Source of the DNA: a virus
Taxonomy: Duplodnaviria > Heunggongvirae > Uroviricota > Caudoviricetes
Virus record (IMG/VR): IMGVR_UViG_2700989509_000029
DNA length: 20,646 nucleotides
Direction: 5' to 3' (one strand)
Part shown: positions 15,001 to 20,646 of the stretch, piece after piece
Position numbering within the stretch: the stretch's first letter is position 1
Layout of the letters: each line of letters opens with the position of its first letter
Made by a program: the position numbers

Positions 15001-18000
15001 ATCAACATCATTAATCGCTGTTACCAGGTCGGTACTTTCCGTGACACGGGCACCATGAAAACGAGTTTCACTCATAGCTTCAGCCCCTTGTATCCGTTAA
15101 ATGATTCGGCAACAATCATCACCCACCACGCGCGTAATCTCACCCCTGCGCCGTTCTCCCGCCACGGCGACAACAAAAAGCAGTAACCCACTCCGCACGC
15201 ACATGCGACCATGCCGCACAGGGAGGGAAAGATGACCGACACCACCATGCAATTGCTCAGACAGAGCACAGACCCCGTGAAAATGCCGGATTTTGATATT
15301 CTCGCGGAGGGGGAAACGCTGTCCGGCGTGGCAGAGCGCCTGATGAGTCTGTCACTGACCGACAACCGGGGATTTGAAGCGGACCAGCTCACCATCACGC
15401 TGGATGATGCGGATGGTCAGTTGCAGCTACCGCCACGGGGCGCGCGCCTGACGGTTCTCATTGGCTGGAAAGGAGAACCGCTGACAGAAAAAGGCACTTA
15501 CATTGTTGATGAAATCGCTCACGAAGGACCGCCGGACAGGCTGACTGTTTCAGCCAGAAGCGCAGATTTTCGGGATGAATTTAACGTTAAACGTGAGGTG
15601 TCCTGGCATGATGTGACCGTTGAGCGCGTGGTATCCGCCATCGCTCATCGGTACGGTCTGAAACCACAAATCAGCGAAATGCTGATGGATATTGAAATCG
15701 ACCACGCCGACCAGACCGAAGAAAGCGACATGTCCTTCCTTACGCGCATGGCGGAAATGCTGGGCGCAATCACTACGGTAAAAAGCGGTAATCTGTTATT
15801 CATCATGCCAGGCGGTGGCGTGAACGCACAGGGCCAGCCGTTGCCCTCGTTCGCCATCACGCGCAGCAGTGGCGATCGCCATCAGTTCCGCATTGCTGAC
15901 CGCGAAGCGTATACGGGGGTACGCGCTTACTGGCTTGATCTTAATTACGGGAAAAAGAAAAAAGTCAGCGTGAAACGCCGCAAACCGAAAAAGGAGAAAA
16001 GCAGCAGCCGTGAAGGTGACTATATGGAAGGTGCGGAAGGCAACGTGTTTGTGTTACGCAAGACTTATCAGAACGAACAGGCAGCAAGACGCGCAGCGGC
16101 GGCAAAGTGGCAGCAGCTACAACGCGGAGCCGCATCATTCTCCATCACGCTGGCACGTGGTCGTGCAGAACTCTACCCCGAAATGCATGGCACGGTAACA
16201 GGATTTAAAAGCGAGATTGATAATCAGGACTGGATTATTGCAAAAGCCGAGCACACCATTGATAACAGCGGCTTTACCACGCAGCTTGAACTTGAGGCAA
16301 AAATCCCGGAATGGATAGCGGAAACAGAGTGAGCAACTTAAATATATTAACTCGCTTATAGCACTTAACAGTCTGACATCTAGCCTTGTCACAAAAATTG
16401 CAAGCGCCATCATATTCTCTTGACTCAAGATACCAATACAAGTGACTATGTAATCTTTTATGATGTTACCTCATTTGGGTTAATATATTAAAAGGAGTTG
16501 GAAAATGTCTCTAGTTACCCGCAATGTATTCATTGATACTGAGTTTTTTGTAAAAGCAAACCTGGACTTCAACTCAAAAACTATAAAATCATTTGAAGAA
16601 CTATGTAGAAATGATGAGTTCAGGCATATTTCTACAACAATTGTAGTTAAAGAAGTTGAACGAAAAATCATAGAGCATATACAAGAAGCATTGAAAGGGA
16701 TTAACAATTTCCGACGAAAGGCTGTTATCCTCAAAGAATATGAAGATGACAATATTAAAAATCTATTTTGTGAAATTAATGAAACAGACATTCAAGAAAA
16801 GGCATTAAGCGCATTTAATGGTTTCATGGAGGACTCAAACACAACTATTGTAGATATGTCGAAGGTGGACCTCAATGAGGTTATAGACATGTACTTTGAT
16901 AAAAAAAGCCCCTTTAGTGCGAAAAAACCTAACGAATTTCGAGACGCCTTCACTCTTTTAGCAATACGTTCCGCGCTAGGAGATAATGAAAAAATTTATG
17001 TGGTTTCAGAAGACCCTGACCTAAAAGGTTACTGTGAAGACAATGATAATTTCATAATTATAGGAGCACTAAACTTACTACTAGATGATTACAACAAACA
17101 CAATGACGAAAGAACTGGATTTATAGAACGTTTTTTAGAAAGCAAAAATGAAGAAATCATACAAAAATTAACGGAAGAATTAGAAACTGCTGAAGCTTAT
17201 AATTCTTCAACATGGGAAGACTCAGAGATTGATAGCTTTGAAATTACGAACATAAGCGAATTCGAACCCAAAATAATTCATTTGGATGACGAAAGTTGTC
17301 AAATTACTTTTGATGTTACTGTTAGTTTTAATGTCACTGCCAGCGGACCTGATACCGCAAACGGCTATTATGACAAAGAGGATGGAAAATTTTATACCTT
17401 TGACACCGTATCTAATCACGAGGAGGAGGAAAAGGATTTTACAGTAGAACTAGAATTATTCTTTGAAATAGACGAAGGCCAGTTTATCAATGATGAGTTT
17501 AATTTGCACATAAATGGACTGGATGCTGGTATTGAATTTTGTGTCGATGAAAACTCATGGGAAGACTATAGATAGCTCCTCACTCAGGGAGGGCTGTCAG
17601 TTGGAATCTGAATTGGGACAACTTAGAATGGTAGCAGCACCACGTTAAGGGAGGTCGCTATGTTCCGTTGTCCGCTTTGTGGCGCATCTGCCCGTATCCG
17701 CACCAGTCGTCCGGAAAATGATTCAAACACCGTGCGGCAAAAGTATTACCAGTGTAACAATCTGGAATGCGGCGTATGCTTCTCAACACTGGAAGCTTTC
17801 CATAAATTCACATCAAAACACGCCTCCGGCGTTCACTCTTCAGAAGGTATCCCGTGGCATGAACTGCCAGCTTCACACAGGGGAAACAATCAGATGAGTT
17901 TGCCTTTACCTCAGAATTAACAGGCAGAATTGCCGGAGCAACAAAAAAGCGATAGATTACGCGCGGGTGCCTTTCGGCTGATGGTCGGAGGGAATACCCG

Positions 18001-20646
18001 AAGGCCAGATGTGGAAAGGCCCCGGAAAACATTTCTGTTTAACCGAGGCCCTAACATATCTACCTTAAGCAAGTGATAGGTTAGCGCCTCTCCAACAAAG
18101 GAGCAAGCGCTATGTCGCAAAAATCGCTTACGGCCATCACGTTCTGCGTGACGGTAATCCTCATCATCTGGATGCTGCACGGTTCGCTGTGTGAAATACG
18201 GATGAGCTTCTGGGGAGCGGAGTTTGCGGCGTTCTTACAGTGTAAGCAGTAAGGAAACCGCGACGGGGGAGTAATCCCCCGTCAATCGGTTGCCAGGGTA
18301 AGGTCGATAAGGCACCCTATCTCACAGACATGAACAACAAGCCCGTAGCGTAAAAACTGCGGGTTTTCTTTTTGGTATCCCCATCCATAAGCAATAGGCA
18401 TAACAGATCGATGCAATAAATCCGATCGATAAAAACGATCGATTTGTTATCATATCGGCAGCAGTAACCACACAAGAGGTGCCGCAAATGACGCAAAATG
18501 TACGATGCAAAAATTGCAACAAACTACTTGCCCGCGCCTCATTTCACTACATTGAAATAAAATGTCCGCGCTGCAAAACACTTAACCAGATAACGAGAGC
18601 CATCGAGCACCCCACACACATGAGGAGTTATGACCGTGGGGATCGCAATCCAGCACCAACCAGCACATACACCGGAACACACTAAGGTTTATCAGACTGA
18701 CAATGCCATGCTCTGTCGTGGGAATGCGCTGGAAATATTGCCGCTGATTGAGCCAGAAAGCATTGATGCCTTAATCACTGACCCGCCTTACAGTTCGGGG
18801 GCGACACACAAGGCCGGACGCACCAACCAGGGCAGCCATGCAAAATATCTGAACGGCGAGAACCTTCACCGCTTTGATGGGTTCGCGGGTGAAAACATGG
18901 ACGCCCGTTCGTGGGCTTACTGGACACAATTATGGATGGCACAGGCACACCGCGCAGTCAGGCCGGGCGGTTATGCCCTGGTATTTACTGACTGGCGACA
19001 ACTACCAGCTTTAACCGATGCGTTTCAGGCCAGTGGCTTTACATGGCGCGGCATTATTGCGTGGAACAAAGGGAGGGGGTCACGAACACCACATACCGGG
19101 TATTTCCGGCATCAGTGCGAATACATCGTCTGGGGCAGCAAAGGCCATTTAGATAAATCGCCTTCGGGACCGTTCGACGGCTGCATGACGTTCCCGGTTA
19201 TCCCGTCAAAGAAAATGCACCCGACCGGAAAACCAGAAGAACTAATGGCGGAACTGGTCAGGACTGTGAATAGTGGCGGAACAGTCCTTGATCCTTTTAT
19301 GGGGTCAGGGACAACGGGTGTGGCTGCACTGAAAGCAGGACGCAAATTTATTGGTATAGAAACCAGTGATCATTATTTTGATGTAGCAACACAACGGCTC
19401 AAAACGGCGATCGAACCATAAGACAAAGCCCGCAATGTTGCGGGCTTACTCTACCTCTCGAAAATGTGGTCACTGCGTGGACATACGCTGATACAAATCC
19501 TTTTATATCAATAAATTAAATCTTTGTTTTTTTCATCAACAAGGATTTTCACGTTTGTGTTACCTGTATGAGACGAGAGTTAACCGGACAAGTGTGCCAT
19601 AATCTCGCGGCCAGGCATACTTGCGAAGATTTCAGGTATAAGGATACGTAATGATACAACCTATTTCCGGCCCTCCTCCTGGGCAACCACCAGGTCAGGG
19701 AGATAACCTGCCGTCTGGCGCGGGCAATCAGCCTTTATCCAGTCAGCAACGTACTTCGCTGGAAAGCTTAATGACGAAAGTGACCTCACTGACGCAACAG
19801 CAAAGAGCAGAACTGTGGGCGGGTATCAGGCACGATATTGGTCTGTCGGGAGATTCACCGCTGCTTTCGCGTCACTTCCCTGCCGCTGAACACAACCTGG
19901 CGCAACGTCTGCTGGCCGCGCAAAAAAGCCATTCTGCCCGCCAGCTTTTAGCGCAATTAGGGGAGTATTTACGTCTGGGGAATAATCGTCAGGCGGTCAC
20001 GGATTATATCCGTCATAACTTTGGTCAGACGCCGCTGAATCAGCTCTCACCGGAGCAATTAAAAACCATTCTCACCCTGTTGCAGGAAGGGAAGATGGTT
20101 ATTCCGCAACCGCAGCAGCGCGAGGCGACCGACCGTCCTTTATTACCGGCGGAGCACAATGCGCTTAAACAGCTGGTGACCAAACTTGCGGCGGCAACGG
20201 GGGAACCCAGCAAACAGATCTGGCAATCGATGCTGGAACTTTCCGGGGTGAAAGATGGCGAGTTAATTCCAGCGAAACTGTTTAACCATCTGGTGACCTG
20301 GCTACAGGCGCGTCAGACGCTAAGCCAGCAAAATACGCCGACACTGGAATCACTACAGATGGCGCTAAAACAACCTTTAGATGCCAGTGAACTGGCAGCG
20401 TTATCGGCGTATATCCAGCAAAAATATGGTCTTTCTGCGCAATCATCGCTTTCTTCTGCCCAGGCCGAGGATATTCTTAATCAGCTTTATCAACGGCGGG
20501 TTAAAGGGATTGATCCGCGTGATATGCAACCGCTGCTTAATCCTTTTCCACCGATGATGGACACGTTGCAAAATATGGCAACGCGTCCCGCGCTGTGGAT
20601 ACTGTTAGTCGCGATTATCCTGATGCTGGTCTGGCTGGTTCGTTAG

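Follow-up and report, generated by a model that had tools for sequence, protein, structure and literature searches.

The stretch of viral DNA analysed here, called the window throughout, comprises 20,646 nucleotides (nt) of a member of the Caudoviricetes (IMG/VR record IMGVR_UViG_2700989509_000029) and carries a small gene of the Hok/Gef family of type I toxins. The region around this gene, 17930–18373, is very probably a complete hok/sok-type type I toxin-antitoxin module of a divergent Hok lineage (cluster 72), present as accessory cargo of a P88-like prophage (Xuanwuvirus, P2-family), where it is located between the late activator gene ogr and the attachment end on the right. The toxin gene itself is made up of two elements:

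18112–18252, plus strand: hok coding sequence with an ATG start, encoding 46 amino acids, MSQKSLTAITFCVTVILIIWMLHGSLCEIRMSFWGAEFAAFLQCKQ (Hok cluster 72)
18098–18103, plus strand: hok ribosome-binding site AAGGAG, 8 nt ahead of the ATG

The open reading frame (ORF) is matched by the Pfam family HOK_GEF (PF01848) with 30.1 bits, compared to a cut-off of 22, and an E-value of 3.7e-07. Its product is a small hydrophobic peptide that has M1, C12, T14, L26-C27-E28 and E37 in common with both R1 Hok and HokC. The exact peptide is found in RefSeq as "Hok/Gef family protein" and is entry 1628 of cluster 72 in the Hok catalogue of Escalera-Maurer et al. (bioRxiv 10.1101/2025.08.07.668861). In this catalogue, clusters are defined at 60% identity, and two members of cluster 72, 72_1621 and 72_1589, were cloned behind an inducible promoter. 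Only three of the 45 constructs were non-toxic (19_179, 60_1482 and 69_1540); as the two cluster-72 constructs are not among them, they are counted as toxic. Member 72_1621 differs from the window ORF in a single residue (V15A).

The comparative set consists of 56 distinct copies, aligned from phage, E. coli, E. albertii, Salmonella and Citrobacter records and residing in two unrelated phage families. Wider sampling yielded only seven loci from a scan of genome contigs and 80 near-identical copies from a viral scan, and the diversity of the sample is limited to that extent. The hok ORF is unbroken in all 56 variants, with dN/dS values of 0.03 to 0.33, and the 46-residue peptide is under purifying selection.

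As judged by Pfam-type domain matches, hok is preceded by an ogr/delta zinc-finger activator gene (17660–17920) and followed by genes for a Mu Com-like zinc ribbon protein (18479–18685) and an N6/N4 DNA methylase (18630–19421). A 501-base pair (bp) region is 97% identical to the Escherichia phages Chuche, P88, P884B11 and 500465-2 (Peduoviridae, Xuanwuvirus); in phage Chuche the gene order is ogr, hok, com, methylase and integrase, and phage P88 has hok in the same order relative to its neighbours. With E. coli O145 RM8988-C1 the identity is 99.8%, and the locus of that genome belongs to a P2-family prophage next to flk. A full P2-family structural set is located upstream of it, with capsid, terminase, baseplate and tail genes as well as ogr; flk, a host gene, follows straight after the methylase gene, which places the hok locus about 1.3 kilobases (kb) from the right prophage end. 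In the gene orders of RM8988-C1, P88 and Chuche, hok is thus P2-like prophage cargo between ogr and the attachment site. The cargo of this interval varies between relatives in a PIN_12 gene, the number of hok copies (one or two) and the com-methylase pair: the PIN gene is missing from some relatives and the com-methylase pair from some, and one contains two tandem hok loci. In the latter, E. coli JNEC-KY203 (locus L095), the tandem cluster-72 hok ORFs (2688–2828 and 3160–3300, downstream of ogr) have about 75% DNA identity to each other, and each has a separate leader and fbi box.

A match to the locus is present in 1548 of 5426 complete E. coli genomes; PGAP gives the product as "Hok/Gef family protein" and calls no sok RNA there. 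A second copy type, with about 83% DNA and 76% protein identity, is located after lom in Stx2 phages, including 933W. In the RefSeq record of 933W (NC_000924.1) the hok ORF, at 1361–1501 of L100, is left unannotated, and in five other phage records (NC_026014.1, NC_049391.1, NC_049343.1, PP925824.1 and NC_049917.1) the hok ORF itself is named "MokW-like host killing". The latter is a misnomer, a family-level label given to loci without mok, and the implied link to hokW-sokW of Stx prophage Sp5 concerns a different paralogue. Copies with 100%, 100% and 74% protein identity also occur on contigs labelled Planococcaceae metagenome-assembled genome, Vagococcus sp. and Xanthomonas pisi, respectively (L007, L008 and L011); their flanks are E. 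coli-like and they are probably due to assembly contamination or mis-binning.

The gene and its prophage location are therefore already known from RefSeq, from phage GenBank records and from the published catalogue, which also reports that hok is enriched in prophages and states that mok, Sok and the messenger RNA (mRNA) ends are outside its analysis (bioRxiv 10.1101/2025.08.07.668861). The original prediction for this DNA, made from the sequence by itself, had placed a Hok/Gef-family gene with a good ribosome-binding site between ogr and a methyltransferase module, followed by a GC-rich hairpin and a terminator with a T-tract. All of these features are found again, by the domain matches and gene orders above and by the coordinates listed here and below, and the toxicity assay that it proposed has in effect been published for the one-residue variant 72_1621, toxic on induction (bioRxiv 10.1101/2025.08.07.668861).

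RNA elements of the module

Elements of the predicted hok mRNA, in 5' to 3' order, are the following:

17930–17958, plus strand: predicted hok promoter, with -35 box TTGCCG (17930–17935), 17-nt spacer and -10 box TAGATT (17953–17958)
17965–18373, plus strand: predicted full-length hok mRNA of about 409 nt, from the start of the Rfam hok-leader model to the end of the terminator
17965–17979, plus strand: tac-like 5' element GGGUGCCUUUCGGCU, nearly invariant in the 56 homologues
17983–17999, plus strand: nascent-hairpin partner of the 5' end (equivalent of the metastable hairpin), in folds of 17965–18000 and 17965–18060
18013–18023, plus strand: ucb-like box GGAAAGGCCCC, alternative partner of the 5' end after removal of the 3' end
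18045–18090, plus strand: Sok-target hairpin (like sokT, or the mok translation initiation region), GAGGC.CUAAC ... GGUUAG.GCCUC
18083–18110, plus strand: hairpin closing the hok Shine-Dalgarno sequence AAGGAG, -12.3 kcal/mol when folded alone
18223–18232, plus strand: dcb-like box UUUGCGGCGU, pairing with the hok start region (18112–18121)
18261–18284, plus strand: GC-rich 3' stem-loop with a stem of ten pairs, likely 3'-end protector of the processed mRNA
18302–18317, plus strand: fbi-like element GGUCGAUAAGGCACCC, best duplex partner of the mRNA 5' end
18339–18373, plus strand: intrinsic terminator, with its stem at 18339–18366 and a T-tract to 18373

The predicted hok promoter starts 10 nt past the ogr stop codon, with no terminator between the two. 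Most of the 24 distinct upstream contexts contain a TTGnnn-17 nt-TA(G/A/C)A(T/A/G)T pair 6 to 7 nt ahead of the sequence GGGTGCC, and this conserved pair places the +1 position near 17965. The geometry is kept even in Stx phages with unrelated flanks, and at least one copy (L012) has no recognisable match. The resulting 409-nt transcript has a minimum free energy of -173 kcal/mol (z-score -6.77 relative to shuffled sequences), in a fold in which the helix between the 5' and 3' ends is closed.

This long-range helix, between the tac-like and fbi-like elements, has a pairing probability of 1.0 in the full-length fold. The duplex is predicted at -25.9 kcal/mol, compared to a median of -7.7 kcal/mol over the range searched, and the helix is 97% paired in the 56 sequences. 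The best 3' partner of the 5' end is located at +337 in the window, +338 in the 933W copy, +340 in hokB and +374 in the R1-like locus, each with its own complementary sequence. Such private complementary partners across subfamilies are, at the sequence level, cross-family evidence for tac/fbi pairing. Homology between phage contexts ends just past fbi (GGCACCC) and the terminators diverge downstream: in other contexts the terminator is swapped for different ones or is absent. A terminator scan of the region gave four terminator-like sites, where 0.6 were expected from shuffled sequences. In Stx-phage copies there is no terminator past the fbi element, and in 933W the start codon of the next ORF (ATGGCACCC..., 1558–1566 of L100) overlaps the fbi box; the 5'-3' pairing of Stx-phage hok mRNA could also mask the start of this ORF.

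Two alternative partners of the 5' end, the nascent hairpin and the ucb-like box, are found by thermodynamic prediction only. In transcripts cut at about 18300, the tac-ucb helix forms with a probability of 0.04 to 0.39, and it is 99.2% paired across the 56 sequences. The metastable-hairpin and tac-ucb logic has been described for R1 (PMC9841398), and the folds predicted here match it. The 3' stem-loop has compensatory changes at two of its pairs, in 13 and 10 of the 56 homologues. It likely protects the 3' end of a processed mRNA, by analogy with R1, in which the truncated hok mRNA ends in the last stem-loop (PMC9841398). The start of hok is enclosed as well. Both its Shine-Dalgarno sequence and its AUG are paired in the model of the full-length mRNA; the Shine-Dalgarno hairpin is 96.4% paired across the 56 sequences and the dcb pairs (RNAalifold columns 161–170 with 275–284) are kept in 55 to 56 of them. 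In the RNAalifold consensus, the Sok-target hairpin is present with an invariant stem and a variable loop, and it keeps the GAGG that is the mok Shine-Dalgarno sequence in canonical loci.

On the opposite strand, the antisense RNA and its promoter are predicted as follows:

18012–18070, minus strand: candidate Sok antisense RNA of about 59 nt, with a 5' single-stranded tail and a hairpin, followed by GGGGCCUUUCC
18078–18106, minus strand: predicted Sok promoter, with -35 box TTGCTC (reverse complement of 18101–18106), 17-nt spacer and -10 box TAACCT (reverse complement of 18078–18083)

The candidate Sok is supported by homology: relative to the hok leader, its placement and length match those of the annotated SokB (57 nt) and SokC (59 nt), and its hairpin and U-rich tail occupy positions homologous to theirs. 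Its fold has a free energy of -24.4 kcal/mol and a z-score of -4.25. The -10 box TAACCT is invariant in 56 of 56 copies and adjoins the GCCUC arm of the target hairpin, where, read by eye, the hokB leader has a -10-like TAAGAT; the -10 box of R1 Sok is presumably TATCCT. The predicted Sok promoter matches the sigma-70 consensus at only six of 12 positions. The original prediction had identified no Sok RNA, which now has to be corrected to a minus-strand candidate running from 18070 to 18012; it had been missed because it is invisible without comparison.

When a sensitive scan is made, the Rfam model RF01794 ("sok"; hok-leader/sok) is aligned over all its 157 positions to 17965–18122, with 47.9 bits and an E-value of 1.4e-9. 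According to control scans, the strand of this model is the hok-sense one and the model effectively represents the hok leader; it scores 118 bits on hokC, 110 bits on hokB, 87 bits on the R1-like plasmid locus and 36 bits on the 933W copy of the lineage. The covariance-model search for hok/sok elements suggested in the original prediction thus has a divided outcome, with a full-length alignment on the one hand and a score under the gathering threshold on the other.

Several results weigh against the assignment of the region to a complete hok/sok module. The 47.9 bits of the leader model are below its gathering score of 59 and far below the 87 to 118 bits of canonical loci, and a scan at Rfam gathering scores gives no match in the hok region. 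The peptide scores under the cut-offs of the NCBIfam Hok subfamily models. A consensus promoter scan flagged neither the hok nor the Sok promoter, both of which are poor sigma-70 matches. Within the lineage, the key 5'-end helices show no covariation above shuffle controls in the 56 copies, for the reason that the 5' end is invariant. PADLOC gives no match for the Hok peptide (nor for the PIN_12 and Com proteins) and, according to a section heading of the catalogue, hok is not enriched near defence systems (bioRxiv 10.1101/2025.08.07.668861). The missing mok frame and the closed Shine-Dalgarno hairpin, described below, belong to the same side of the balance. The leader-model scores mark the lineage as a divergent branch, which explains both the absent sok annotation and the sub-threshold NCBIfam scores.

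The missing mok frame and the control of translation

In canonical loci, a mok frame starts in the loop of the target hairpin. At the equivalent place, the window contains:

18056–18068, plus strand: expected mok start, with AUA (18056–18058) at the position of the mok AUG (GAGG plus 7 nt) and TAA (18066–18068) in the mok frame

No frame starting with ATG, GTG or TTG spans the hok ATG in the window and, by eye, the mok frame of the window contains no ATT, ATC, ATA or CTG between the TAA and the hok ATG. None of the 56 variants has an ATG in the target loop and an overlapping mok frame is thus lacking, whereas the controls hokB, hokC and the R1-like locus all have a loop ATG, 7 to 8 nt past GAGG, from which the frame reads across the hok ATG. 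Insertions and deletions in the loop shift the reading frame between copies, and some non-homologous upstream ORF crosses the hok ATG in only 18 of the 56 variants. The original prediction had found no mok; its absence was no oversight but is a real feature of this Hok lineage.

Two substitutes for mok were rejected. The AUA as a start gives a frame of only six codons, which ends 35 nt ahead of the hok ATG and is not conserved, and a mini-ORF reading GTG-ATA-GGT-TAG is lacking in the Stx and E. albertii variants. The TAA at 18066–18068 varies between copies. In several of them, one a Stx-phage copy, CTTAAG is replaced by CTTGAC (alignment A3, columns ~112–116), with a TTG in the mok frame at exactly the position of the TAA codon; this TTG could be the remnant of a mok start, or be there by chance.

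In R1, mutations of the mok start codon abolish Hok production (PMC9841398). This would favour a translationally silent relic, in which mok was lost, Hok is no longer expressed, the antisense RNA, if made, is left without a toxin to control and the locus hitch-hikes in successful prophages. The stop codon in the mok frame of the window and the absence of a mok start codon from all 56 variants agree with this, as does the hok Shine-Dalgarno hairpin, which is predicted to be closed in all mRNA forms. Several of the chromosomal hok loci of K-12 are inactive, which is also counted in favour of a relic. Against it stand the selection on an ORF that is unbroken in two unrelated phage families and several species, the strong AAGGAG ahead of the ATG and the preservation of the promoter, the tac, fbi and ucb elements, the target hairpin and the 3' stem-loop. 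Cluster-72 peptides are, furthermore, toxic on expression (bioRxiv 10.1101/2025.08.07.668861). On balance, a silent relic is considered very unlikely.

A further reading, slightly less likely than not, is that cluster 72 is a naturally mok-less hok/sok lineage that is still active, in which Hok may be translated from its own ribosome-binding site and Sok may act without translational coupling, by RNase III-dependent decay or by blocking a standby site at GAGG. Without a mok frame, translation of Hok has to begin at the AAGGAG of hok itself, and a route through mok is not available to Sok. In the searchable literature, no description of a mok-less, active hok/sok control was found.

By homology to R1, hokB and hokC, such a module would work as follows. 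Exonucleolytic trimming from the 3' end back to the stem-loop at 18261–18284 would strip off fbi, upon which the 5' end would pair anew with the ucb-like box (18013–18023), exposing the target hairpin (18045–18090). Sok, transcribed from a promoter of its own as a short-lived RNA of about 59 nt (18070 to 18012), would bind to this hairpin, and the duplex would be destroyed, ribosome loading would be blocked, or both. When synthesis of Sok stops, through loss of the prophage or because an infecting phage shuts off transcription, the stable processed hok mRNA would be translated and Hok would depolarise the inner membrane. How Sok would repress translation in this lineage is more speculative; the preferred guess is that it triggers cleavage by RNase III and/or occupies the retained GAGG, which would serve as a ribosome standby site.

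The models do not account for one part of this scheme. The Shine-Dalgarno hairpin is closed with a probability of at least 0.98 in every mRNA form that was modelled, with or without Sok, and the switch-on of translation is therefore not explained by them. One candidate switch was considered in which, after 3' trimming, GAGGC would pair with GCCUC and open the hok Shine-Dalgarno hairpin, a change that Sok would reverse. Locally, the conformers involved are within 1.5 kcal/mol of each other. Partition functions of the whole mRNA speak against this anti-anti-Shine-Dalgarno idea, with the Shine-Dalgarno hairpin at 0.98 or more in every form (outer helix at least 0.83) and the target stem at 0.14 or less; it is thus not supported in silico.

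Biological role and neighbouring genes

Extrapolating from R1, selfish stabilisation of the prophage (addiction) appears to be the most likely role of the module, although this is put forward with some reserve. Exclusion of other phages comes a close second and help in lysis third. The original prediction had suggested post-segregational killing or phage exclusion, both of which are reasonable extensions of what is known for R1 hok/sok.

In the second role, the module would be an abortive-infection defence of the lysogen: a lytic phage would shut off host transcription, Sok would decay and Hok would kill the cell before progeny is formed. This is possible, if somewhat doubtful. Anti-phage genes such as old, tin and fun are among the cargo of P2-family prophages, and in the relatives the cargo between ogr and the attachment site clearly varies. 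The R1 hok/sok system lowers plating of phage T4, as cited in PMC8621323. The lack of PADLOC matches and the section heading of the catalogue, both mentioned above, speak against a defence role too.

The third role would use the same module upon prophage induction, when Sok levels would drop and Hok would permeabilise the membrane, so that progeny is released faster, as for hokW-sokW of Sp5. Release of Sp5 is twofold lower without hokW-sokW (Takada et al. 2021, PMC8621323), which is a small effect. In the window, the locus lies directly downstream of the late-gene activator ogr and, with no terminator between, late read-through is conceivable; such read-through would, however, add a 5' extension to the hok mRNA and break the logic of 5'-end pairing. 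The Sp5 hokW is, moreover, a different paralogue of 51 residues (MKQQKAM...) that, going by the published primers, has a mok ATG, and the Sp5 results are therefore not simply transferable to the window locus. Help in lysis is unlikely, and addiction remains the preferred role.

Between a gpD-like tail gene and ogr, the window encodes a PIN_12-domain protein of 356 residues (16505–17575, plus strand; Pfam, 74.9 bits). Its gene is present in RM8988-C1 and absent from Chuche, P88 and several other prophages with the same ogr-hok junction. The protein has no PADLOC or NCBIfam match and may be an uncharacterised cargo or defence gene product. On the other side of hok, the com gene overlaps the gene of the Type II-like N6/N4 DNA methylase by 56 nt (both on the plus strand). 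A CGATCG...CGATCG palindrome (18423–18441) is located upstream of com, as is the only consensus-grade promoter of the region (18426–18453). The layout of this module (18422–19421), which is present in some relatives and not in others, is similar to that of the com-mom translational control of Mu, but an ordinary methylase is encoded here. Elsewhere in the window, the only Rfam match over its gathering score is IS009 (190.5 bits; 8492–8690, plus strand), located between the prophage's inverted tail-fibre genes and its gene for a Cin/Gin-like recombinase.

As a gene call, the analysis adds nothing to the catalogued protein and to the toxicity data for a near-identical peptide. What is added is a map of the RNA elements at the level of coordinates, together with the absence of mok from a widespread lineage. 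The RNA half of the module is missed by standard annotation, with no sok from Rfam or PGAP, mislabelled phage records and an unannotated hok in 933W. Over a quarter of complete E. coli genomes contain the lineage, which occurs in P2-family and Stx phages and lacks the frame that is essential in R1. If it is active, it constitutes a natural experiment on how hok is translated and how Sok represses it without coupling, and it would also bear on the stability of P2-family and Stx prophages or on the defence that they give their hosts. If true, mok-independent control would be a second regulatory logic within the type I toxin-antitoxin family that has been studied most.

Comparison with known systems

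At the gene level, the window locus does not differ from the loci of catalogue cluster 72 and of phages P88, Chuche, P884B11 and 500465-2. It shares with hokW-sokW of the Stx prophage Sp5 that it is a prophage-borne hok/sok locus; for Sp5 the toxin, the antisense antitoxin and an induction phenotype have been demonstrated (Takada et al. 2021, PMC8621323). The two are not identical, as the primers of Takada et al. encode MKQQKAM...DYESEK with a mok ATG. The Sp5 peptide is hokC-like and its mok ATG is located in the target loop.

In the tisB/istR-1 system, the antisense RNA binds far upstream of the closed ribosome-binding site of the toxin, and a ribosome standby site is blocked by it. For mok-less control, this offers a possible analogy in function only, with no homology in sequence or structure.

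The hokB/mokB/sokB and hokC/mokC/sokC loci of E. coli K-12 have a near-identical 5' end (GGGUGCC...), the same CCGAGGCC target motif, a GGGGCC(U)n Sok 3' end and the same spacing of elements. Where they have an ATG, 7 to 8 nt past GAGG and reading across the hok start, the cluster-72 lineage has AUA, CGU or CAU. The K-12 loci pass the Rfam and NCBIfam cut-offs, while the window locus does not.

When the window locus is compared with hok/mok/sok (parB) of R1, its peptide is 33% identical, with 46 instead of 52 residues, the leader model scores 48 bits compared to 87 bits for the R1-like locus, and the locus is borne by a prophage, not a plasmid. It has no mok frame, and its target loop is about 8 nt longer and does not contain an AUG. 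The general architecture is nevertheless alike. Both encode a Hok/Gef peptide in which the C, T, LCE and E residues are conserved, and in both the mRNA, about 360 to 400 nt long, pairs its 5' and 3' ends (tac/fbi). Shared as well are the ucb box, the hairpin of the nascent 5' end, the GAGG in the target hairpin, the sequestration of the hok Shine-Dalgarno sequence and a protective 3' stem-loop. To these can be added, as a candidate in the window locus, a cis-antisense RNA of about 60 nt, with its -10 box against the GCCUC arm of the target hairpin.

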